Shown piece after piece: positions 2,761 through 55,060 of a DNA stretch of 64,000 nucleotides. The number at the start of each line of letters is the position of its first letter. The stretch's first letter is position 1. A program made the translations under genes and the position numbers. The notes under the pieces were generated by a model. The model was given only the letters and a program-made list of their open reading frames with translations, did not search any database and was not told where the DNA came from. The stretch is taken from contig NC_088282.1 in assembly GCF_036013445.1 (NCBI RefSeq), positions 133,631 through 197,630 of the forward strand. Reading direction: 5' to 3'. This stretch comes from Caloenas nicobarica (lineage: Eukaryota).

Positions 2761-3049
2761 CCCACAAGGGGTCGCCATTCCACCCCCCCCAATTCCATGG
2801 AGTTTGACCCCAAAATGTGGGGGGTTTTCCCCAAAATTGTGGGGATTTTGAGCCAAGTTATGGGGCTTTTTGCCCCCCAAATCCTGTTTGATTTTTCCCC
2901 AAATTCCATTGGAGTTTTCCCAAAATTCTCTTGTATTTTTTTTTCCCCATTTTTTCTCCCCAAATCCCCATTTTTTCCCCCCAAATCAGCCTCTCACCCC
3001 CCAAAACCTTCATTTCTATTTTTCTTTTTATTCCCTGGGGGGGGGGTCG

Positions 3050-4100
3050 CTCAGAGGTCAAAGGTCACTTGGGGTTGTCAATCGCCAGCTGGTTGCTCCC
3101 ACGTGGGGTCACGTGGGGTCACTTGAGGTGTCAATCACTGCTTGGAGGTCAAAGGTCACGCGGGGATGTCAATCACCAGCTCGTCGTCCCCATCCAGGGT
3201 CACGTGGGGTCACAGGGGTCACGTGGGGTCGCTCGGGTTGTCAATCAATGGCCGCTCCGGGGTCACGTGGGGTCACAGGGGTCATGTGGGGTCACAGGGG
3301 TCACTCAGCTTGTCAATCAATCATCGCTCCGGGGTCACATGAGGTCACAGGGATCACATGGGGTCACAAAGGTCATGTGGGGTCACTAGGTTGTCAATCA
3401 ATGGCTGCTCCGGGGTCACGTGGGGTCACTAGGTTGTCAATCAATGGCCGCTCCGGGGTCACGTAGGGTCACAGGGGTCATGTGGGGTCACAGGGGTCAC
3501 TTGGCTTGTCAATCAATCATCACTCCGGGGTCACGTGGGGTCACAGGGGTCACTCCGGTTGTCAATCAATGGCCGCTCCGGGGTCACGTGAGGTCACAGG
3601 GGTCAGTCAGGTTGTCAATCAATCATCACTCCGGGGTCACGTGGGGTCACAGGGGTCACTCCGGTTGTCAATCATCACTCCGGGGTCACGTGGGGTCACA
3701 GGAGTCACTCCGGTTGTCAATCAATGGCCGCTCCGGGGTCACGTGAGGTCACAGGGGTCAGTCAGGTTGTCAATCAATCATCACTCCGGGGTCACGTGGG
3801 GTCACAGGGGTCACTCAGGTTGTCAATCAATGGCGGCTCCGGGGTCACGTGGGGTCACAGGGCTCACTCCGGTTGTCAATCATCACTCCGGGGTCACGTG
3901 GGGTCACAGGGCTCACTCCGGTTGTCAATCATCACTCCGGGGTCACGTGGGGTCACAGGGGTCACTCAGGTTGTCAATCAATGGCGGCTCCGGGGTCACG
4001 TGGGGTCACAGGGCTCACTCCGGTTGTCAATCATCACTCCGGGGTCACGTGGGGTCACAGGGGTCACTCCGGTTGTCAATCAGCGGCCGCTCCGGGGTCA
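3050..4100. repeat. Tandem array of a unit of about 55-58 bp (about 18 copies). Each unit has a CACGTG E-box and three GGGTCA half-sites.
   Basis: Unit ggggtcacgtggggtcacaggggtcactccggttgtcaatcaatggccgctcc. It lies between the convergent MAZ and INO80E 3' ends. Confidence 0.85.
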
Positions 4101-4104
4101 GAGG

Positions 4105-4344
4105 TCACTCGGGGATGTCAATCACCAGCTCGTCGTCCCCGTCCAGGGCGTCGTCCCCGCTGCCCTCCCCCCCCTCCCCCTCCCCCTCCCCCCCCCCGTG
4201 GCTCAGGAGCCTCCGGGGGACGGTGCTGGGGACGGGGGGAGGGGCGGGGGGCGGGGCGGGGGGCGGGGCCAGCGCGGGGGGGGGGAGGGGCCCGGCCTGG
4301 CCACGCCCCGGGGGGGGGAAGGGAAACGGGGGGGTGGGGGGGAC
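4105..4344 (-). CDS. INO80E: INO80E terminal exon. Encodes [20 protein letters not shown]...[45 protein letters not shown] and the stop codon.
   Basis: The C-terminus matches human ...[33 protein letters not shown]-stop. Stop codon (reverse complement TGA) at 4105-4107. Acceptor cccccccccag at 4345-4346. Confidence 0.75.
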   Translation of the reverse strand, partial: [79 protein letters not shown]

Positions 4345-4379
4345 CTGGGGGGGGGGGGGAAATAGGGGGGTCGGGGGGG

Positions 4380-4700
4380 GTCACGTGATGCACTGGGACA
4401 CGGCCCCGCCCCCAGCCCCACAAGTGACCCCCCCACCTCCGGACCCACAAGTGACCCGAAGTGACCCCCAAGTGCCCCGTAACTGCCCCCCCAGCCCCAC
4501 AGATTAACACCCCCAGGCCCGCAAGTGCCCCATAAGTGACCCCATGACCCCCCAGCTGCCCCATAAGTGACCTCATGATCCCCCAGCTGCCCCATAAGTG
4601 ATTTCAGCCCCATATATTGACCCCCAAGTGCCCCATAACTGCCCCCGCAACCCCACAAATTAGCCCCCCCAGGCCCCCAGCTGCCCCATAAGTGCCCCCC
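4380..4700. repeat. CCCCATAAGTGACC-type short tandem repeats.
   Basis: ccccataagtgaccccatgaccccccagctgccccataagtga. The same motif family recurs at 5700-6170 and 19400-20300 (there as its reverse complement). Confidence 0.6.
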
Positions 4701-4729
4701 CCCCCCCCCCCCCAGCGCCCCCCACGGAC

Positions 4730-4849
4730 CTGGGGGCGTCGGCTGCTGCGGCTGCGCCGGGCGGGGCCGGGGCGGGGCCGGGGTGGGCGGGGCCCGTCGG
4801 GCGGGGCCAGAATCTCATTGGGGAACGGGCTGAACGGGGGCGTGGCCAC
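4730..4849 (-). CDS. INO80E: INO80E exon 6. Encodes VATPPFSPFPNEILAPPDGPRPPRPRPGPARRSRSSRRPQ.
   Basis: Matches human [34 protein letters not shown]. Acceptor ccccccccag, donor cag|gtccgt. Phase 0 in and out. Confidence 0.6.
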
Positions 4850-4889
4850 CTGGGGGGGGGGGGCGGGGTCAGCTGGGGACACGCCCCCC

Positions 4890-5210
4890 CCCCCCCCGCT
4901 GCGATTGGCTGGAGAGGGTGGGGGGAGCCCAGACCACGCCCCCTCGCTGGGATTGGCTGGAGAGGGTGGGGGAGCTGAGACCACACCCCCTCACTGGGAT
5001 TGGCTGGGGGAAGAGGGGGCGGAGCCGGGGGGGGGGGGGGAGACCACGCCCCCCTCGCTGCCATTGGTTGAGGGTGAAGGGGGTGGAGCCACGCGGGGGG
5101 GGGGCAGACCACGCCCCCTCACTGGGATTGGTTGGGGGTTGGAGGGGGCGGAGTCACAGGGGGACTGGGACACGCCCCCTCGCTGGGATTGGCTGCGGGT
5201 AAAGGGGGCG
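4890..5210. repeat. Tandem repeat of about 62 bp (about 5 copies). Each unit carries gggattggctgg, an inverted CCAAT box.
   Basis: ccacgccccctcgctgggattggctggagagggtgggggagc repeated inside an INO80E intron. Confidence 0.7.
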
Positions 5211-5227
5211 GGGCCGCGGTCACTCAC

Positions 5228-5279
5228 CATATATGGAGCGGGCGGGGCCGGGAAGGCGGGGGGGGAGGGGCTGCGCTTC
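5228..5279 (-). CDS. INO80E: INO80E exon 5. Encodes (R)KRSPSPPAFPAPPAPYM.
   Basis: Matches human KRKRSPPLGGAPSPSS. Acceptor cccccccag, donor atg|gtgagt. Phase 2 in, phase 0 out. Confidence 0.6.
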
Positions 5280-5299
5280 CTGGGGGGGGGAGGAGGCGG

Positions 5300-5600
5300 G
5301 GTCAGGGGGGCGGGGCCAAGGCGGCAGCCATCTTGGAGCCCCGCCCACCTCCCCGGCGGCCATCTTGGCTGCTGGCAGCGGCCATATTGAAGCCTGGCAG
5401 CCATATTGGAGCCCCGCCCACCTCCCTGGCAGCCATATTGGATGCTGGCGGCGGCCATCTTGAAGCCTGGCGGCCATCTTGGAAGCCTTCCCACGACCCT
5501 GGCGGCCATCTTAGAAGCTGGCGGCGGCCATATTGAAGCCTGGCGGCCATCTTGGAGCCCCGCCCACCACCCCGGCGGCCATCTTGGCCCCGCCCCCCAC
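5300..5600. repeat. Tandem array of about 13 consensus YY1 sites (GGCGGCCATCTTGG and GCCATATTGG variants), unit about 20-24 bp.
   Basis: gcggcagccatcttggagccccgcccacctccccggcggccatcttggctgctggcagcggccatattgaagcctggcagccatattggagcc... It lies in INO80E intron 4. Confidence 0.85.
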
Positions 5601-5667
5601 CTCTTGCCGCCGTCGCTGCCTTTGTTCCCGTCCCCGTCGCTGTCGGACGTCGCCGTCGCCTCCGAAT
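5601..5667 (-). CDS. INO80E: INO80E exon 4. Encodes DSEATATSDSDGDGNKGSDGGK(R).
   Basis: Matches human [21 protein letters not shown]. Acceptor ccccag, donor aagag|gtgggg. Phases agree. Confidence 0.65.
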
Positions 5668-5699
5668 CTGGGGCGGGGAGGAGCCGATGGGGACCCATA

Positions 5700-6170
5700 G
5701 CGACCCCCAAGTCCCCCCCCAGCCCCACAAGTGCCTGAAATTGACCCATAATTGCCCCATAACGACTCCCCGGTGCCCCCCAACTTCCCCATGTTGACCC
5801 CTAAGTGCCCCCAAATGACCCATAAATGCCCCAAAGTGACCCATAAATGCCCCACAGCGACCCCCAAGTTCGCCCGCGGCCCCATAACTACCCCACAATG
5901 TCACCCGGCTGCCCCATACTGATCCCTGAACGACCCATAAATGCCCCAAATTGACCTACACCTGCCCCACAGCGACCCCCAAGTTCCCCCCCGCCCCATA
6001 AGTGCCTGAAACTGACCCATAAGTGCCCCATAGAGAGTCCCCAGTGCCCCCCATTGACCGTCAGCCTCCCCACATTGACCCCCAAGTGCCCCCAAATTGA
6101 CCCATAAATGCCCCAAATTGACCCGTAACTGCCCCATAGCGACCCCCAAGTTCCCCCCCAGCCCCATAAG
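5700..6170. repeat. Short tandem repeats of the CCCATAAGTG / CCCATAAATGCCCCAAAGTGAC type.
   Basis: gacccataaatgccccaaagtgacccataaatgccccacagcgacccccaagtt repeated. Confidence 0.6.
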
Positions 6171-6186
6171 TGTCGCTCCCCATTAC

Positions 6187-6239
6187 CCGTCGTCTCCTCG
6201 TCCACGTTCTCATAGAGCAGCAGCCGGTCCAGCAAATAA
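6187..6239 (-). CDS. INO80E: INO80E exon 3. Encodes (S)YLLDRLLLYENVDEETT.
   Basis: Matches human SFLLDRLLQYENVDED. Acceptor ccccag, donor acgg|gtaatg. Confidence 0.75.
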
Positions 6240-7135
6240 CTGGGGGGAGGGGAGCGGCCGTGAGGGACCCAGGCATCCGGGAGGGACCCAGGCGTTCGGG
6301 GGGGACCCAGGCGTCTGGGAGGGACCCAGGAGTTCGGGGAGGGACCCAGGCGTCCGGGAGGGACCCAGGCATCCGGGAGGGACCCAGGCGTCCGGGGGGA
6401 CCCAGGAGTTCGGGAGGGACCCAGGCGTCCGGGAGGGACCCAGGAGTTCGGGGGGAGACCCAGAAGTCCGGGGGGACCCAGGAGTTCAGGAGGGGACCCA
6501 GGAGTTTGGGAGGGGACCCAGGCGTCCGGGAGGGACCCAGGCGTCCAGGGGGACCCAGGAGTTCGGGAGGGACCCAGGCGTCCGGGAGGGACCCAGGAGT
6601 TCGGGGGGAGACCCAGAAGTCCGGGGGGACCCAGGAGTTCAGGAGGGGACCCAGGAGTTTGGGAGGGGACCCAGGCGTCCGGGAGGGACCCAAGAGTTCG
6701 GGGAGGGACCCAGGCGTCCGGGACGGTCCCAGGCGTCCGGGGGGACCCAGGAGTTCGGGAGGGGACCCAGGAGTTCGGGGAGGGACCCAGGCGTCCGGGG
6801 GAGGGACCCAGGAGTGCGGGAGGGACCCAGGAGTGCGGGGAGGGACCCAGGCGTTCGGGGGAGGGACCCAGGAGTGTGGAGGAGGGACCCAGGCGTCCGG
6901 GACGGTCCCAGGCGTCTGGGAGGGGACCCAGGAGTTTGGGAGGGGACCCAAGAGTCCAGGGAGGGACCCAGGAGTGCGGGAGGGACCCAGGAGTGCGGGA
7001 GGGACCCAGGAGTTCGGGGAGGGACCCAGGAGTCCAGGAGGGGACCCAGGCATTCGGGAGGGACCCAGGAGTTCAGGGAGGGACCCAGGAGTCCGGGAGG
7101 GGACCCAGAGGATGGATTTTGGGGCCGTTTTGAGG
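6240..7135. repeat. 20-bp minisatellite GGGACCCAGGCGTCCGGGAG, about 45 copies.
   Basis: A direct tandem array. The same 20-mer family recurs elsewhere in the window in both orientations. Confidence 0.9.
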
Positions 7136-7146
7136 GATTTTGGGAC

Positions 7147-7217
7147 CTTTTGTCGCGCGAAACCTTCAGGAGTTTGCGCTGGGCCCGACGCAGCTCGTCC
7201 TGGAAACATTCCTGCTC
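7147..7217 (-). CDS. INO80E: INO80E exon 2. Encodes [23 protein letters not shown].
   Basis: Matches human [24 protein letters not shown]. Acceptor ttag and donor aaaag|gtccca on the minus strand. Phases agree with the flanking exons. Confidence 0.8.
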
Positions 7218-7299
7218 CTAATCGAGCAAAAACGGGGGATTTGGGGGAAAAACAGGGAAAAACGTAGCTAGAAATACACAGAGACACCCCCAGGAACCC

Positions 7300-9180
7300 C
7301 CAAACCACCAATTTCAGCCCCCAAAAGCCCAATTTTGGTCCAAAACCCCCTAAATTTAAGCCCCTAAAGCCCCAATTTTAGACCCAAAAAATCAATTTCA
7401 GCCCCCAAAACCCCAATTTTGGTCTCCAAAAAATCACAATTTTGGCCCCAAAAAATGCCAGTTTGACTCCCAAAAGACCCAATTTCACCCCCAAAAAGCC
7501 CAATTTCATCCCCCAAATGCCCCACTTACCCCAAATTCCTCCAGAACCCCCAAGTTCCCCCAAATTTACCCCAGAATCCCTCAAATTCACCCCAAATTTC
7601 CCCAAATTCCCCCAATTTACTCCAGAACTCCTAAAATTTACCCCAAATCCCTCCAAATTTACCCCGAATTCCCCCAAATTCTTCCAGAACCCCCCTAATT
7701 TACCCCAGAACCCCCCAAATTCCCCCAGAACCACCAAATTTACCCCAAATTCCCCCAAATTTACCTTAAATTCCCCCTAATTTTACCCCAGAACCCCCAA
7801 ATTCCTCCAGAACCCCCAAATTTACCCCAAATTCCCCCAAATTTACCCCAGAATCCCTCAAATTTACCCCAAATTCATCTCAAATTCCCCCTAATTTACC
7901 CCAGAACCCCCCAAATTCCCCCAGAACCACCAAATTTACCCCAAATTCCCCCAAATTTACCTTAAATTCCCCATAATTTTACCCCAGAACCCCCAAATTC
8001 CTCCAGAACCCCCAAATTTACCCCAAATTCCCCCAAATTTACCCCAGAATCCCTCAAATTTACCCCAAATTCATCTCAAATTCCACCTAATTTACCCCAG
8101 AACCCCCCAAATTCCCCCAGAACCACCAAATTTACCCCAAATTCCCCCAAATTTACCTTAAATTCCCCATAATTTTACCCCAGAACCCCCAAATTCCTCC
8201 AGAACCCCCAAATTTACCCCAAATTCCCCCAAATTTACCCCAGAATCCCTCAAATTTACCCCAAATTCATCTCAAATTCCACCTAATTTACCTCAAATTC
8301 CCCCTAATTTACCCCAGAACCCCGCAAATTCCCCCCAAATTCCCCCAAATTTACCCCAGAACTCCCCAATTTCCCCCCAAATTCTCCAAATTTTTCCCCA
8401 AATTCCTCCAGAACTCCCAAATTTCCCCCACAACCCCCAAATTTCCCCCAGAATCCCTGAAATTAACCCCAGATTTCCCCCAAATTCCCCCCGATTTACC
8501 CCAAATATATCTCAAATTCCCCCCAATTTACCCCAGAACCCCCCAAATTCCCTCGACTTCCTCCAGAACCCCTAAATTTACCCCCAAACCTCCAAATTTA
8601 CCTCAAATCCCCCCACGTTCACCTCAAATTCCCCCTAATTTACCCCAGAACCCCCCAAATTCCCCCCAAATTCCCCCAAATTTACCCCAGAACTCCCCAA
8701 ATTCCCCCCGAATTCTCCAAAATTTCCCCCGAATCCCCCCAATTTACCCCCAAGTCCCCCCAATTTACCCCAATTTCCCCCCAATCTACACCAAATCCCC
8801 CTAATTTAGCTCAAATCCCCCCAAATCTCCCCAATTTCCCCCCCAATTTCCCCCCAATCCCCCCAATTTCCCCCCAATCCCCCCAATCTACCCCAAATCC
8901 CCCCAATTTACCCCCAATTTCCCCCAAATTTCCCCCAAATCCCCCCAATTCACCCCCAATTTCCCCCCAATCTACCCCAAATCCCCCTAATTTACCCCCA
9001 AATCCCCCCAATTTCCCCCAAATCCCCCCAATTTCCCCCCAATTTGCCCCCAGTTTCCCCCAAACCCCCCCCAATCCCCCCAATTTCCCCTAATTTACCT
9101 CAAATCCCCCCAATTTCCCCCAAATTTACCTCAAATCCCCCCAATTTCCCCCAATTTCCCCCCATTCCCCCCCCCCCCCA
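7300..9180. repeat. C-rich short-unit satellite (CCCCAAATTTACCCCAGAA, units 10-20 bp) of about 1.9 kb.
   Basis: aatttaccccaaattcccccaaatttaccccagaa repeated. The bottom strand is G-rich. Confidence 0.85.
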
Positions 9181-9264
9181 GCCCCGTTCGCGCCCGATCC
9201 CGCGCAAGCCCCGCCCCCCCCGCAAGCCCCGCCCCTCCTCCCGGCCCCGCCCCTTCCCGCTCAC

Positions 9265-9348
9265 GTAAAGCAGCAGCTTGAGGCGCCGCTTGAGCGCCCG
9301 GTAGCGCCGCTTGTAGCCGCCGCCATCCTGCTCGGCCGCCCCGTTCAT
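9265..9348 (-). CDS. INO80E: INO80E exon 1. Encodes MNGAAEQDGGGYKRRYRALKRRLKLLLY.
   Basis: Matches human INO80E [27 protein letters not shown]. ATG (reverse complement) at 9346-9348, donor tac|gtgagc. An upstream in-frame ATG at 9403-9405 lies inside a CCAAT box and is probably not used. Confidence 0.75.
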
Positions 9349-9720
9349 GGCCGCCGCTTCCGCCTCCTTCCCGGAAGCGCGCACCGCCTCCCCCTCGCTT
9401 CCCATTGGCTGGGCGGCGCCGCTCGCCCCGCCCTCTCGCTCCTCATTGGTGCGCCGCGCTGTCTCTCTCCCTGCCCCGGGTTCGCCCCGCCCTCTCGCTC
9501 CCCATTGGCTGGGCGGCGCCGCTCACCCCGCCCTCTCGCTCCTCATTGGTGCGCCGCGCTGTCTCTCTCCCTGCCCCGGGTTCGCCCCGCCCCCTCGCTC
9601 CCCATTGGCTCGCCCGCCTCCTCACGCCCCATTGACCCCTTGGTTCGCCCCGCCCCCTCCCTTCCCATTGACACAAGCGGTTCGCCCCGCCCTCTCGCTC
9701 CCCATTGGCCGCGGCGGGGG
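9349..9720. promoter_or_regulatory. INO80E: INO80E promoter carrying a tandem array of NF-Y sites.
   Basis: Sits immediately upstream of the INO80E ATG on the minus strand. Units of about 60-120 bp each carry CCATTGGCT or TCATTGGTG (ATTGG is the reverse complement of CCAAT), at least six copies. Confidence 0.55.
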
Positions 9721-9779
9721 CGGCGGGGGAACGCGATTGGCTGGCGCCGCCGCGAAGCCCCGCCCACCGCGCCATTCAG

Positions 9780-11700
9780 GGCTTTTCAAAGCAATTCTGG
9801 ACCATTTCAGTTGCTCTTTTGAGGCAAAACCCCCGATTTTTGGGTCATTTCGGGTGGTTTTTGGGCCATTTGAGGCGGTTTTGAGGCGTCCAGTGTTATT
9901 TGGGGGGGGATTCAAAGCGGTATTGGCATTTTTAGGGTTTATTTTTTGCATATTTGCGCCATTTTGGGGCCATTTCCCGTAAAATCTCGCAAAATGTCAC
10001 CAAAATCCCCCCAAAATTCCCCAAAACGCCACAAAATTTCCACGAGGTTTTAAAAAAGGCGCCCAAAATCCCGCAAAAATCTCCCGATTCCACAAAAATC
10101 CCACGAAAAAAGTCACAGAGCCCCAGGAAATTCCCCAGAATTCCCCCAAATCCCCCCAAATTTCGCCCAAATTTTAGAAAAATCTCACAAAAAATTCCCC
10201 AAAATCCGTTATTTTGGGGTTTGTCCGTCGGATCTTCAAATTTGCTCAAATTTCGCATCATTTCTCCCATTTTCTCCACACGTCGGGTCCATTTCTGAGG
10301 CGATTTTGGGTCGAAAACGCCGGTTTTTTGAGGCGAAAAAGACGTTTTTTGAGGCGAAAAAGCCAGTTTTGGGGTCATTTCAGCCGGTTTTGGGTCATTT
10401 TGGGTGGTTTTTGGGTTTGTCCATCACATCTTCATCAACATTTGCTGAATTTTTTGGTGCCAATCGCTCAAATCTTGGTTTTTTTGTCCCGTTTCTTTCC
10501 GCGCATTGGGCCCGTTCCTGAGGCGATTTTGGGTCGAAAACGCGGGTTTTGGGGTCGAAACCGCCGTTTTTTGAGGCGAAAAAGCCGGTTTTGGGGTCGT
10601 TTCAGCCGGTTTTGGGTCATTTTGGGTGGTTTTTGGGTTTGTCCATCACATCTTCATCAACATTTGCTGAATTTTTTGGTGCCAATCGCTCAAATTTTGT
10701 TCCACTTCTCCCGTTTCTTTCCGCGCGTCGGGCCCGTTCCTGAGGCGATTTTGGGTCGAAACGGCCGTTTTTTGAGGCAAAAAAGCCGGTTTTGGGGTCG
10801 TTTCAGCTGTTTTGGGTCATTTTGGGTGGTTTTCCTAAATTCTTCACGCCGATCTCTCGAATTTTGTTTCTTTTGTCCCGTTTCTTTCCGCGCGTCGGGC
10901 CCGTTCCTGAGGCGATTTTGGGTTGAAAACGCCGTTTTTTGAGGCGAAAAAGCCGGTTTTGGGGTCGTTTCAGCTGTTTTGGGTCATTTTGGGTGGTTTT
11001 CCTAAATTCTTCACGCCGATCTCGCAAATTTTGTTTCTTTTGTCCCGTCTCTTTCCGCGCGTCGGGCCCGTTCCTGAGGCGATTTTGGGTCGAAAACGCG
11101 GGTTTTGGGGTCGAAAACACCGTTTTTTGAGGTGAAAAAGCCGGTTTTGGGGTCGTTTCAGCTGTTTTGGGTCATTTTGGGTGGTTTTACTGAATTCTTC
11201 ACGCCGATCTCTCGAATTTTGTTTCTTTTGTCCCGTTTCTTTCCGCGCGTCGGGCCCGTTCCTGAGGCGATTTTAGGTCGAAAACGCGGGTTTTGGGGTC
11301 GAAACCGCCGGTTTTTGAGGCGAAAAAGCCGGTTTTGGGGTCGTTTCAGCTGTTTTGGGTTATTTTGGGTGTTTTTACTAAATTCGTCACGCCGATCTCT
11401 CGAATTTTGTTTCTTTTGTCCCGTTTCTTTCCGCGCGTCGGGCCCGTTCCTGAGGCGATTTTGGGTCGAAAACGCCATTTTTTGAGGCGAAAAAGCCGGT
11501 TTTGGGGTCGTTTCAGCTGTTTTGGGTCATTTTGGGTGGTTTTGCTAAATTCGTCACGCCGATCTCTCGAATTTTGTTTCTTTTGTCCCGTTTCTTTCCG
11601 CGCGTCGGGCCCGTTCCTGAGGCGATTTTGGGTCGAAACGGCCGTTTTTTTGAGGCGAAAAAGCCGTTTTCGGGGTGGGAAAAGCCGTTTTTCGAGGCGA
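9780..11700. repeat. Satellite with a unit of about 190 bp, about 10 copies, between the INO80E promoter and the PAGR1 3' end.
   Basis: Unit gaggcgaaaaagccggttttggggtcgtttcagctgttttgggtcattttgggtggtttt...ccgcgcgtcgggcccgttcctgaggcgattttgggtcgaaaacgcc repeated with minor variants. Confidence 0.9.
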
Positions 11701-13179: not shown

Positions 13180-14570
13180 ATTTAAGGGTTTCCCCCCCAA
13201 AATCCCACAAACTCCCCCCCCCAAAATCCCCCAAACGCTACGAAATGCCCAAATTCTCGCAAAACGGCACCGAAATCCCACAGGAATTGAAGGAAAGTCC
13301 CCACAAAAACCTCCCCAAAATCCCGCGGAAATCTCGCCAAAATTGGCAAAAATCCCACGAAATCTGACGGAGTCCCACGAGAATTCCACCCGACTCCCAT
13401 AAAAATCCCCTCGAATCGCACCCAAATACCACAGATTTCACGAAAATCTCACAATATGCCATAAAAATGCCCCCGAAATTCTGCAAAATCCCACCGAATA
13501 TCCACAAAGTTCCCCCAAAATTGTACTAAATCTCAGAAAAATCCCCCAAAATCTCACAAAGCCTCGAAATCCCTCGAGATCCCCCAAATCTCAGAGAATT
13601 CCCCCAAATCTCACAATATCCAGAAAAATTACCACAAAAACCCCGCAACATCTCCACAAAATTTTGCCCAAATTTTACAAAACCTCACCAAAAAAAAAAA
13701 TCCTCCCCAAAATCTCAGAATCCCACAAAAATCTCCCCAAAATTCCACAAAACCCCACAAAGTCTCCACAAAATTTCCCAAGTTTTACAAAATCCCACAA
13801 ATTTCCCCCTCAATTTTACAAAACCTCCCCCAAATCTCACAAGATCTCCACAAAATTTCCCCCTAAATTTTACAAACCCCACACGTTTCCCCCTAAATTT
13901 CACAAAGTCTCCCCCAAATTTCACAAGATCGCCACAAAATTTCCCCCTAAATTTACAGAATCTCCACAAAACTTCACAAGACCTCCCCAAAATTTCCCCC
14001 AAACCCCACAAATTTCCCCCTAAATTTTACGAAATCTCCCCCAAATTTCAATCTCCCCAAAACTTCCCCAAAATTTCCCCCGAACTCCCCAAATTTCCCC
14101 CAACCCCCCCAAATTCCCCCCTAAACTTCACCAATTCCCTCCTCAATTTTACCAAACCCCCCAAAACTCCCCCCCCCAAATTTCACAAAACCTCCCCCAA
14201 ATTTCACAAGATCTCCACAAAATTTCCCCCTAAATTTTACAACCCCCCCCAAATTTCCCCCAAAATTTTACAAAATCTCCCCCAAATTTCAATCTCCCCA
14301 AAACTTCCCCAAAACTTCCCCAAGACCCCCCAAATTTCCCCTGAAACTTCACAAATTTCCCCCTCGATTTTACAAAACCCCCAAGTTTCCCCCGAAATTT
14401 CACACAATCTCCCAAATTTCCCCCGAAATTTCACACAATCTCCCAAATTTCCCCCGAAATTTCACAAAATCTCCCCCTCAATTTCACAAAATCTCCCCCA
14501 AATTCCACCACCCCTCCCCGAAATTTCCCCCAAACCCCCGCCGCCGCCCCCGAAATAAAAAACTTTTCCA
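13180..14570. repeat. C/A-rich short-unit satellite (CCCCAAATTTCACAAAATCTCC type) in the PAGR1 intron.
   Basis: Repeated caaaatctccccaaaattccacaaaaccccacaaagtctccacaaaatttccc. Confidence 0.8.
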
Positions 14571-14579
14571 GCTCTCTAC

Positions 14580-14974
14580 TTCTCCTGCTGCGGCAGCTGC
14601 GCGTCGGGCTCGGGCGCCTCCTCGCGCTGCTCGTCCCGCGGCGTCTCCGGGGTGGGCGGGCGGCGCGGCCGGGGGGGGCGGGCGAGGGCGACGGTTCCGT
14701 GTTGGGCGATGAGCTCGTAGAGGCGGCGGATTTCGGGGGGCGGCGGCTGCCACCCCCCCGCGGGCTCCCCCTCCTCGTCGCTGCAGGGGACGCCCCAGTC
14801 GTCGCCCTCGGCCCAGTCGGCGGCGGCGTAGTCGGCAGCGGCGTAGTCGGCGGCGGCGTAGTCGGCAGCGGCGGCGTCGCCCGTCATGGCCGCCGGCGCG
14901 GCGGGAACCGGGGGGTCGGCGGGGGACAGGGAGGGGAGAGACGGGGGCGGCGGCGCCTCGGCCTCGGCCGCCAT
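14580..14974 (-). CDS. PAGR1: PAGR1 exon 1. Encodes [11 protein letters not shown]...(DYAAA)x3 [58 protein letters not shown]...QQE(K).
   Basis: Matches human PAGR1 [60 protein letters not shown] (reverse complement) at 14972-14974. Donor gagaa|gtagag on the minus strand, phase 2. Confidence 0.8.
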
Positions 14975-16880: not shown

Positions 16881-19000
16881 CAAACTGGGAATGTGGGGGG
16901 TCAAACTGGTGTCAAACTGGGAATGGGGGGGATACTGGGAATGAGGGGCTTATACTGGGAATGGGGGGGGTTACTGGGGCCGTACTGGTCCATACTGGTC
17001 CATACTGGGAATGGGGGGGTTGCTGGGGCCGTACTGGGCCATACTGGTCCATACTGGGAATGGGGGGGGTTACTGGGGCCGTACTGGGCCATACTGGTCC
17101 ATACTGGTCCATACTGGGGATGGAGGGGGGTTACTGGGGCCGTACTGGGGGTTAGTGGGGCCATACTGGTCCATACTGGTCCATACTGGGAACATACTGG
17201 GAATGGGGGGGGTTACTGGGTCATACTGGGGGTTACTGGGGCCATACTGGGCCATACTGGTCCATACTGGGAACATACTGGGAATGGGGGGGTTACTGGG
17301 GCCATACTGGGGGTTACTGGGGCCATACTGGTCCATACTGGTCCATACTGGGAATGGGGGGGTTACTGGGGCTGTACTGGGGGTTACTGGGGCCGTACTG
17401 GTCCATACTGGTCCATACTGGGGATGGAGGGGTTACTGGGGCCATACTGGGGGTTACTGGGGCCGTACTGGTCCATACTGGTCCATACTGGGAATGGGGG
17501 GGTTACTGGGGCCGTACTGGGGGTTACTGGGGCCGTACTGGTCCATACTGGTCCATACTGGTCCATACTGGGAATGGGGGGGGGTTACTGGGGCCATACT
17601 GGTCCATACTGGGAACATACTGGGAATGGGGGGGGTTACTGGGGCCGTACTGGGGGTTACTGGGGCCGTACTGGTCCATACTGGTCCATACTGGTCCATA
17701 CTGGGAATGGGGGGGGGTTACTGGGCCATACTGGGGGTTACTGGGGCCATACTGGTCCATACTGGTCCATACTGGGAATGGGGGGGTTACTGGGGCTGTA
17801 CTGGGGGTTACTGGGGCCATACTGGTCCATACTGGGAATGGGGGGGGGGGCAAACTGGTCCATACTGGGACCATACTGGGAATGGGGGGTGTTACTGGGG
17901 CTGTACTGGGGGTTACTGGGGCCATACTGGGCCATACTGGGCCATACTGGTCCATACTGGGAATGGGGGGGGTTACTGGGCCATACTGGGGGTTACTGGG
18001 GCCATACTGGTCCATACTGGTCCATACTGGGAATGGAGGGGTTACTGGGGCTGTACTGGGGGTTACTGGGGCCATACTGGTCCATACTGGGAATGGGGGG
18101 GGGGGCAAACTGGTCCATACTGGGACCATACTGGCAATGGGGGGGGTTACTGGGGCTGTACTGGGGGTTACTGGGGCCGTACTGGGCCATACTGGTCCAT
18201 ACTGGTCCATACTGGGGATGGGGGGGGGGGGTTACTGGGGCCGTACTGGGGGTTAGTGGGGCCGTACTGGTCCATACTGGTCCATACTGGTCCATACTGG
18301 GAATGGGGGGTGTTACTGGGGCCACACTGGGGGTTACTGGGGCCGTACTGGTCCATACTGGTCCATACTGGGAACATACTGGGAATGGGGGGGTTACTGG
18401 GGCCATACTGGGGGTTACTGGGGCCATACTGGTCCATACTGGTCCATACTGGGAATGGGGGGGGGTTACTGGGCCATACTGGGGGTTACTGGGGCCATAC
18501 TGGTCCATACTGGTCCATACTGGGAATGGGGGGGGTTACTGGGGCTGTACTGGGGGTTACTGGGGCCATACTGGTCCATACTGGGAATGGGGGGGGGGCA
18601 AACTGGTCCATACTGGGACCATACTGGGAATGGGGGGGGTTACTGGGGCTGTACTGGGGGTTACTGGGGCCATACTGGGCCATACTGGTCCATACTGGGA
18701 ATGGGGGGGGTTACTGGGGCCGTACTGGTCCATACTGGTCCATACTGGGGATGGGGGAACAAAACTGGTCCCTACTGGGGCCTTACTGGGCCGTACTGGG
18801 GCCCTACGGGGGCCGTACTGGTCCATACTGGGGGTCACCGGGGCCGTACTGGTCTGTACTGGTCTATACTGGCCTATACTGGTCTATACTGGTCCATACT
18901 GGGGGTCACTGGGCTCCTACCGGCTCCGGCGTCTCCTCGATGGCGGCGGCGGGAGGGGGGCGTGGCCACGCCAATCCCCGCCCACCCGCTCCCCCAATCA
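16880..19000. repeat. G-rich satellite of about 2.1 kb built from CCATACTGGT decamers and 35-bp GGGAATGGGGGGGTTACTGGGGCCGTACTGG units.
   Basis: tactggtccatactgggaatgggggggttactggggccgtactgggggttactggggcc repeated. It has G4-prone GGGG runs. Confidence 0.9.
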
Positions 19001-19200
19001 CCCAATCAGCGCCCTCTCCCTTCCCCTCTCCGCTCTCTGATTGGCCTCACCCCCCTTTAACCCCGCCCACTTTCTGGCACGCCCTCTCCCCTTTCCCTTC
19101 ACGCCCGCCGCACCGCGCATGCGCAACCCTTCCCCGCCCTCCCGCCGGCTTCCACTTCCGGTTTGCCGCCGGCGCCATCTTGGATTCGGGGCGGCGGGAA
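18960..19200 (+). promoter_or_regulatory. TAOK2: TAOK2 CpG-island promoter with CCAAT boxes, NRF1, ETS and YY1 sites.
   Basis: ccaatcc, cccaatcacccaatcagc and ctgattggcc lie at 18970-19046. The NRF1 palindrome gcgcatgcgca is at 19115-19125. ETS cttccacttccgg is at 19149-19161. The YY1 site gccatcttgg is at 19174-19183. This is a TATA-less housekeeping-type promoter. Confidence 0.5.
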
Positions 19201-54699: not shown

Positions 54700-55060
54700 T
54701 ATATATATATATATAGGGACGCCAGGCCGCCTCACAAGATGGCGGCCCCGCGCGGGGCACGCTGGGAGTTGTAGTCCCGTCCCCCATTAACCCCAATGCG
54801 CCCCGGCCCTCGGCGGACTACAACTCCCAGCGTCCCCCGCGCGGGGCAACGGCGGCCGCCGCCACAAGATGGCGGGGGAGGCCGCGGTGCACGCTGGGAG
54901 TTGTAGTCCGCGCGTCCATTAAAACACACGGGGAGGGCGGGGCCGGAGGACTACACTTCCCGGCGTGCCCCGCGGGGGCGCATGCGCGCTGACTTCCGGC
55001 TCTCGGCGGGACCGGAAGAGAAAGGCGGAGAGAGGGAGTTGGGGGGGGTGCGCGCGTGGC
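54700..55060 (+). promoter_or_regulatory. SRRM2: SRRM2 CpG-island promoter with a duplicated YY1 plus ZNF143-SBS module, an NRF1 site and ETS sites.
   Basis: The YY1 site cacaagatggcgg occurs at 54733-54745 and 54863-54875. A ZNF143-type ACTACAAxTCCCAGCG motif occurs four times: 54761-54777 (reverse complement), 54817-54832, 54892-54909 (reverse complement) and 54951-54966. NRF1 gcgcatgcgcgc is at 54979-54990. ETS/GABP gacttccggc and accggaag are at 54991-55018. The module of about 130 bp is duplicated. Confidence 0.55.

Follow-up and report, generated by a model that had tools for sequence, protein, structure and literature searches.

A tandem array of YY1-type motifs in intron 4 of an avian INO80E gene and its counterparts in birds, crocodilians and turtles

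The motif array of intron 4

The stretch analysed here, 64 kb of Caloenas nicobarica contig NC_088282.1 (the window), carries the gene INO80E on its minus strand, and its best protein matches point to a bird host; the best match over the full length, to Grus, is 67%, and the N-terminal exons look Neoavian. Intron 4 of INO80E contains a tandem array of 11 motifs that resemble the binding site of the transcription factor (TF) YY1. The gene was placed by tblastn with human INO80E, a query that fitted the goat locus almost perfectly, and by frame translations; exons and introns are numbered from the first coding exon (Table 1). A preliminary description had reported about 13 consensus YY1 sites repeated head to tail within this intron. 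The array indeed fills intron 4, its motifs lie on one strand in a strict 32-22-19 bp cycle, and their sense form CAAGATGGCCGC is a good match to the YY1 consensus used for comparison, CAAGATGGCGGC. The number of motifs is corrected to 11, ten of them with the core GCCATNTTG and one, at 5505, with GCCATCTTA.

On the plus strand the motifs read GCCAT[C/A]TT(G/A), with the 12-mers starting at 5324, 5356, 5378, 5397, 5429, 5451, 5470, 5502, 5524, 5543 and 5575. The general sense-strand form is YAAKATGGCYGC. It occurs as CAAGATGGCCGC (five copies), CAAGATGGCTGC (one), CAATATGGCCGC (two), CAATATGGCTGC (two) and TAAGATGGCCGC (one), so that variants beginning with CAATATGG or TAAGATGG, or ending in GGCTGC, stand beside the main form. 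The motifs are embedded in a higher-order repeat with a period of 73 bp, for which Tandem Repeats Finder (TRF) reports 85% matches and zero indels. Each 73-bp unit holds three YY1-type motifs and, in the long spacer, one GC box (GGTGGGCGGGGC), all oriented as in the sense strand of the gene. Within the unit there is also a duplicate of the donor junction of exon 4, GAG/GTGGGCGGGGCTCCAAGATGGC (the slash marks the splice junction), which matches the true exon-4/intron-4 junction of both the window and the passerine Myiozetetes. The array starts 14 nt past the AG/GTGGGG donor, and tandem repeat makes up 87% of the intron. Across the window GCCATNTTG is found 14 times, against 3.1 expected from dinucleotide-preserving shuffles, and ten of the 14 matches lie within 5327-5586, every one on the plus strand. 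Since a tandem repeat multiplies any motif within the duplicated unit, chance is the wrong null for this count.

Table 1 Features of the INO80E locus, with positions counted from the first letter of the window
Feature	Position	Strand	Description
INO80E first coding exon	9265-9348	(-)	encodes MNGAAEQDGGGYKRRYRALKRRLKLLLY
INO80E exon 2	~7147-7217 (boundaries approximate)	(-)	encodes EQECFQDELRRAQRKLLKVSRDK
INO80E exon 3	~6187-6239 (boundaries approximate)	(-)	encodes (S)YLLDRLLLYENVDEETT
INO80E exon 4	5601-5667	(-)	encodes (D)SEATATSDSDGDGNKGSDGGK(R); orthologous exon in fetched loci
INO80E intron 4, 321 nt	5280-5600	(-)	donor AG/GTGGGG, acceptor CCCCCCAG/G
Higher-order repeat, 3.6 copies of 73-bp unit	5323-5587	(-)	TRF and register alignment
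11 YY1-type motifs	5324-5586	(-), sense strand of INO80E	matrix scores and spacing
INO80E exon 5	5228-5279	(-)	encodes (R)KRSPSPPAFPAPPAPYM; matches transcript-derived bird protein P0001
Intron 5 tandem array	4891-5215	(-)	sense unit: CCAAT box AGCCAATCC and GC/KLF box GGGGGCGTGG
INO80E exon 6	4730-4849	(-)	encodes VATPPFSPFPNEILAPPDGPRPP...RRPQ
INO80E last coding exon	4105-4344	(-)	encodes ...DDALDGDDELVIDIPE and stop codon

The array is located in repeat-saturated DNA. Tandem repeats (TRF score of at least 50) account for 75% of the window and for 42-98% of each INO80E intron, and the window is GC-rich throughout. Such surroundings are consistent with an avian dot chromosome (background in PMC9974502). 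A 2026 paper describes how the introns of avian dot-chromosome genes are filled by imperfect local tandem expansions, termed 'sequence stuttering', in blocks of tens to hundreds of bases whose source often spans an exon-intron border, and reports that the structure of stuttered introns varies between species and even between individuals (PMC12954441). The INO80E array displays the same traits. Imperfect tandem copies cover the intron, the unit is a local block tens of bases long that holds a copy of the exon-intron border, similar arrays lie all around it, and the structure differs in the orthologues, with unit length, spacers and copy number different in every bird examined. Because the unit contains a local duplicate of the exon-4 junction and lies among so many other repeats, the mechanism of amplification is explained and is not special. 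The array departs from stuttering in its seed: according to the published description each species acquires its stuttered units independently (PMC12954441), whereas the INO80E seed is common to turtle through passerine and its TF-contact bases resist change.

Match to YY1 specificity and recurrence across species

YY1 sites were scored with an approximate version of the JASPAR count matrix MA0095.2. With this matrix all 11 sites score 14.5-18.2 bits, close to the maximum of 18.3, and every one exceeds the threshold for p<1e-5 (14.2 bits, a quantile of random sequence); the array is the sole high-scoring cluster in the window. Two comparisons that do not depend on the matrix give the same picture. 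All 11 sites satisfy the text rule cgCCATntt with at most one lower-case mismatch (PMC2665242), and all 11 agree with CGCCATNTT, including the two T's required by YY1, which is degenerate at the N of CCATNTT (PMC1904287). Beside CAAGATGGCCGC, CAACATGGCTGC is a second candidate YY1-binding form. The zinc fingers that form the DNA-binding domain of YY1 are reported to be essentially invariant across animals, so the mammalian motif is reasonably usable for a bird. The ECMFinder definition of a cluster is at least three cgCCATntt in 500 bp (PMC2665242), and intron 4 contains 11 GGCCAT[C/A]TT in 263 bp; the further component of that definition, a cluster at the homologous position in at least two further species whatever its spacing, is found in INO80E introns 4-6 of Myiozetetes, Cuculus, Nothoprocta, Natator and Alligator. 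Likeness of the extended motif to the sites of CTCF and ZNF143 was also considered and set aside, as the GGC of the former and the terminal GCG of the latter are missing (both compared by eye with a consensus).

Other INO80E loci were fetched via annotated proteins and their exons mapped; about 250 kb were examined altogether. A bat protein (P0023) and a frog protein (P0012) led to no locus. Matrix matches of at least 9.7 bits were counted in the intron 4-5 span and compared with the rest of each locus. The window species has 11 matches in the span (14.7 per kb, against 0.62 per kb elsewhere), the passerine Myiozetetes 18 (22.7 against 0.42 per kb), the cuckoo Cuculus 11 (11.5 against 0.59 per kb) and the sea turtle Natator six (6.2 against 0.24 per kb). 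The palaeognath tinamou Nothoprocta has 13, mostly in intron 5, in a span that runs off the contig end (19.4 per kb). Alligator has three high-scoring sense sites, of which intron 5 holds two and intron 6 the third; the rest of its 7.7 kb contains none. For matches of at least 14.2 bits, the Poisson probability is 6e-9 in turtle and 2e-7 in alligator. Copy number across the species takes the values 0, 1, 3, 6, 11, 13+ and 18, and the main array lies in intron 4 of some birds and in intron 5 of the tinamou. The sites are in sense orientation throughout in the birds, including the goose, and in alligator, and in four of six cases in turtle. A house-sparrow (Passer) protein, P0048, reads through a comparable array. 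The contig of the parrot Lathamus (L002), which encodes the closest protein over the N-terminal exons, ends within intron 3, short of intron 4.

The INO80E element extends beyond the YY1 core. On the sense strand it is characterised by the bipartite pattern GCCAG-N4-YAANATGGCYGCC, its extended form being GCCAG-N4-YAANATGGC(C/T)GCC, found in introns 4-6 of passerine, cuckoo, tinamou, goose (one copy), alligator and turtle. In turtle, alligator, goose, cuckoo and the window, exactly four bases separate YAANATGG from the GCCAG upstream of it. This combination occurs six times in the window (0.04 expected) and 11 times in the four other loci, always on the sense strand, and no copy was found outside INO80E introns 4-6 in the roughly 250 kb examined. 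The shared, locus-confined pattern argues for common descent from the ancestor of turtles, crocodilians and birds, which lived roughly 250 million years ago, and against a dispersed repeat. An origin as a dispersed repeat or transposon is accordingly unsupported within the DNA examined.

Within the array of the window the motif bases vary less than their spacers. Mismatches to the 73-bp consensus fall at 7 of 132 motif positions and at 19 of 142 spacer positions (Fisher p=0.024), and the seven most informative motif positions show none in 11 copies (0/77 against 19/142, p=0.0002); these figures come from array copies that are not independent and from position classes that depend on the approximate YY1 matrix. 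All eight differences among the 11 motif copies are at positions 1, 4 and 10, the least informative positions of YY1. A matrix-free search for 8-mers shared by the intron 4-5 spans of five species returned ATGGCTGC, TGGCTGCC, CAAGATGG, AAGATGGC and ATGGCCGC at the top. In the control span, the equally repetitive introns 2-3 (defined with tblastn and short in two species), G/T-rich low-complexity words alone are shared across species. The species-averaged information is high over C-CAA-n-ATGGC-y-GC-C and near zero in the flanks, in a profile that is partly inflated because the sites were chosen with the matrix. Across lineages AA and ATGGC are invariant, whereas all four bases occur at the N of CCATNTT: the window has G or T there, tinamou, turtle and goose have C, and cuckoo has A or G. 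Such a pattern of variation is what purifying selection on the YY1 contact bases would produce.

Other motif arrays and promoter-like features

Motif arrays of other kinds are present in the same gene. Exon 5 is flanked by two promoter-like arrays, the YY1-type array on one side and the CCAAT/GC array of intron 5 on the other, and related GGCCACGCCCC units occur in goose intron 5 (locus L004, 11470-11888). Intron 3 of goose INO80E (L004, 11090-11240) consists of tandem GGTGACGTCACACCC units that represent TGACGTCA sites resembling the cyclic AMP response element. A CACGTG tandem array lies downstream of INO80E in the window. It belongs to a 53-bp tandem repeat (3197-4100) adjoining another copy of the coding tail for the INO80E C terminus, TLDGDDELVIDIP, at 3162-3200 on the minus strand. 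This copy lies downstream of the real last exon, at a distance of about 900 bp, and the arrangement resembles 'exon stuttering'. A putative CArG box, CCATATATGG at 5228-5237, was rejected, as it is the end of exon 5 together with the GTGAGT donor. Two more YY1-matrix matches are located on the minus strand toward the start of the gene. One, CAGGATGGCGGC (9319-9330), lies inside coding exon 1, where it encodes QDGGG, and is probably incidental; the other, CAAAATGGCGCA (9955-9966), precedes the ATG by about 600 bp and may be a promoter-proximal site for YY1.

The upstream neighbour of INO80E is PAGR1, with one exon in the window at 14699-14812. In goose, 27 perfect copies of the YY1 consensus are located directly 5' of the PAGR1 ATG (L004, 4073-5145), and the crane has two perfect YY1 sites upstream of PAGR1 (L009, 368 and 573); no such PAGR1 array was found in the window. 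The goose PAGR1 array and the INO80E arrays together indicate that YY1-motif arrays expand at more than one bird gene. Farther away in the window, 18950-19200 (minus strand) bears a housekeeping-type promoter signature composed of CCAAGATGGCG (YY1), CCGGAAGTG (ETS), GCGCATGCGC (NRF1) and several CCAAT and GC boxes. A promoter-like region at 54700-55010 (plus strand) contains a duplicated module of about 130 bp, with a perfect YY1 site (CAAGATGGCGGC at 54735, CAAGATGGCGGG at 54865) and ACTACAACTCCCAGC of the ZNF143/THAP11 type, followed by GCGCATGCGC and ETS motifs.

Interpretation and alternative explanations

We see an even chance that an ancient YY1-type element in the introns of INO80E has here undergone a lineage-specific tandem amplification, and that the array is probably a YY1 docking site acting on this gene. 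In the ancestor of turtles, crocodilians and birds, exon 5 would already have been flanked by a few such sites. Purifying selection would have kept the YY1-contact bases as spacers, spacing and copy number drifted, and slippage or unequal exchange would have raised the number of sites to 11 in the window species. In the most likely mode of action, the unmethylated array would bind YY1 and, as a docking platform within the gene, adjust INO80E output. One possible route is intron-mediated enhancement or splicing efficiency, as in the intron of UbC; an alternative is a dosage sensor comparable to the clustered YY1 sites that the YY1 gene carries in intron 1. By either route, the expression of INO80E would depend on how much of its complex partner YY1 is present.

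One of the closest parallels is the YY1 gene itself, in which five YY1 sites at the start of the first intron are conserved and their spacers are not; this autoregulatory cluster is necessary for the promoter to be active and brings about homeostatic down-regulation in response to excess YY1 (Kim, Yu & Kim 2009, PMC2743690). In both genes several near-consensus motifs are packed into about 100-300 bp where an intron starts, sites are kept across distant species although the sequence and length of the spacers are not, and the host gene belongs to the YY1 pathway, which makes a feedback reading natural. The differences are also clear. The YY1 cluster lies in intron 1, is reported in all vertebrates, keeps a fixed five sites in a conserved mixed orientation, and is backed by experiments. 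The INO80E cluster lies in intron 4 (or 5-6), is found in turtles, crocodilians and birds alone with loss in at least one bird, has an unstable copy number from 0 to 18+, and points all one way in birds. In the UbC intron located in the untranslated 5' region (5'-UTR), YY1 sites have to be present for intron-mediated enhancement and for splicing at full efficiency (PMC3680475). UbC and INO80E share intronic YY1 motifs with Sp1-type GC boxes, whereas UbC has few sites in a promoter-near intron and INO80E has 11 in an internal intron that lies about 3.7 kb away from the start codon.

Several observations weigh against a functional docking site. The goose (Anser) has one site, in intron 4, and the crane Grus americana has none in INO80E, where intron 4 and intron 5 each measure about 100 bp; a large array is thus not required, and the element can be lost. 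No site was found at the goat (Capra) INO80E locus, and the monitor lizard Varanus shows weak matches alone, at about background density, so the element is not a general feature of INO80E. Turtles and crocodilians evolve slowly at the molecular level, and neutral copies could survive there. The base after ATGGC (motif position 10) is C or T where the consensus has G, the two being related by CpG decay (GGCCGCC to GGCTGCC). High methylation, which could block occupancy, is reported for the dot chromosomes of chicken, and the observed/expected CpG ratio of intron 4 (0.52, against 0.48 for the whole window) reveals no protected CpG island. Moreover, neighbouring units are also TF-like (CCAAT/GC box, CACGTG, TGACGTCA), so resemblance alone is weak evidence. 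The preliminary description had called a YY1 array inside an INO80 subunit gene a striking coincidence; YY1 is indeed an integral subunit of human INO80 (PMC9733932), but the coincidence is weakened by the TF-like arrays throughout the window and by the 27-copy array of goose PAGR1. These points lead to the main alternative, a neutral intronic minisatellite, in which a product of stuttering resembles YY1 sites by chance and is shared by descent with repeated re-amplification. We regard this as possible, if somewhat unlikely. It agrees with the three-quarters of the window that are tandem repeat, with the involvement of every INO80E intron, with the reported variability of stuttered introns between species and individuals, with copy numbers of 0-18 and the shift of the array between introns 4 and 5, with its absence in crane, and with the other nearby arrays that mimic TF sites. 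It is opposed by the behaviour of the core: spacers and spacing are fully diverged between lineages, but the 12-14 bp core is not and varies solely where YY1 tolerates variation, the equally repetitive introns 2-3 share no complex word across species, and turtle and alligator carry the element as few sites rather than long arrays. The conservation that the preliminary description had raised thus comes out divided. The number of copies differs widely, from 0 in crane and 1 in goose to 11-18+ in others, yet the cluster recurs at the homologous place from turtle to passerine, which argues against a purely neutral satellite.

The remaining explanations concern RNA, transcription start, coding and imprinting. 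The array may have a small chance of being an RNA-level element, in which the sense repeats CCAAGAUGGCYGCC, the G-run spacers and the decoy GAG/GUGGGC 5' splice sites would regulate splicing of the small exon 5. The prevailing sense orientation, the sites on both sides of exon 5 in turtle and tinamou, an annotated Grus isoform (X2) without exon 5, and the effect of the UbC sites on splicing efficiency are in line with this; uniform strand is, however, automatic under head-to-tail duplication, and the tolerated variation fits YY1 DNA specificity. We know of no RNA-binding protein for this motif. Intron-4 RNA folds no better than shuffles (z = -0.27), and a structured RNA was rejected on this ground together with the lack of any Rfam match at E<=0.1 over 3000-10500. 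Very unlikely, in our estimate, is an internal promoter or start cluster in which the motifs, the GC boxes and the CCAAT array of intron 5 drive an internal transcript. The combination of YY1, Sp1 and NF-Y motifs is typical of housekeeping promoters, the promoter-like regions of the window share this vocabulary, and goose PAGR1 has its perfect YY1 array directly 5' of the ATG. The motif also resembles the translation initiator of short 5'-UTRs (TISU, SAASATGGCGGC; PMC2518114, PMC3177215), including an ATG in strong context: six of the 11 sites match at 11 of 12 positions (C/T for G at position 10), and the CAATATGG and TAAGATGG variants have two mismatches. A TISU is expected at +5 to +30 of the transcription start, with its ATG used as the start codon, whereas the INO80E motifs are in an internal intron and not at a transcription start or start codon, and their ATGs open no frame into exon 5 and run into stops (the last reads ATG GCT GCC GCC TTG GCC CCG CCC CCC TGA), so a TISU or start-codon function was rejected. 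In addition, the CCAAT array is downstream, not upstream, of the YY1 array, and the CpG ratio is not raised. It is highly improbable that intron 4 is a facultatively coding insert, retained in some transcripts to add 107 residues to INO80E. Its 321 nt (3 x 107) are free of stops in the reading frame of exons 4 and 5, and gene models of other birds (proteins P0048, P0002, P0028, P0008) take in array sequence: those from Passer, Myiozetetes and Nothoprocta run into the arrays as KMAA-type repeats, and a cuckoo model places a 16-residue exon, SQDGVCPHRSTWLPEQ, inside the array between AG and GT (L003, ~13529-13575). By contrast, the transcript-derived bird protein P0001 and Grus X1 splice exon 4 straight to exon 5, the models that read through carry a low-quality flag or terminate in stops, and a stop-free in-frame intron at 70% GC has a chance of about 4% by rough estimate, which is not compelling. 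Least probable of all is a differentially methylated region (DMR) of the imprinting-control type, the analogy that the preliminary description had drawn with Peg3 and Xist. Like the Peg3-DMR, Xist/Tsix, Nespas and the ECMFinder class (PMC2665242), INO80E has many same-orientation YY1 motifs in tandem in an intron, with the cluster conserved and its number and spacing variable by species. The analogy fails on the host, a bird lineage not known to imprint, with no imprinting found transcriptome-wide in chicken (PMC3973300, PMC5607270), and on the core, since the methylation-sensitive CpG of CGCCAT is absent from all 11 sites (GGCCAT) and the closest CpG either is shifted by one base, as in GGCCGCC on the sense strand, or has been lost, as in GGCTGCC. 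Moreover, the expansion fits general dot-chromosome instability, and the cluster is dispensable in crane.

Full-text literature searches returned no paper linking YY1 sites to the INO80E gene, and the feature, apparently a conserved cluster of intronic YY1 motifs that a known avian instability has amplified, seems to be new at INO80E. INO80E is reported to stabilise the YY1 protein (PMC13510582), and by analogy a feedback loop between YY1 and INO80E through these sites is conceivable. A bolder version of the docking-site reading, which we consider unlikely, is that turtle, crocodilian and bird INO80E contains an intronic YY1 sensor about 250 million years old that couples expression or splicing of the gene to the level of YY1, which is the DNA-binding subunit of INO80. 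It would parallel the autoregulatory intron-1 cluster of YY1, and, at the same low likelihood, stuttering would have made a natural dosage series of 0, 1, 11 and 18+ sites.

If YY1 does not bind, the array would carry a caution, namely that perfect-looking TF-motif arrays are common in the repeat-saturated, GC-rich DNA of birds and need cross-species and binding evidence before they are interpreted. If YY1 occupies the sites, INO80E would be the second gene of the YY1 pathway, after YY1, with a deeply conserved intronic cluster of YY1 sites, which would suggest feedback between YY1 and the remodeler INO80 that it recruits. Intron expansions of dot chromosomes could then amplify functional regulatory seeds, not junk alone, and would produce large natural differences in binding-site number between species. 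Such a dosage series would be usable to test how the number of TF sites sets the output of a gene.

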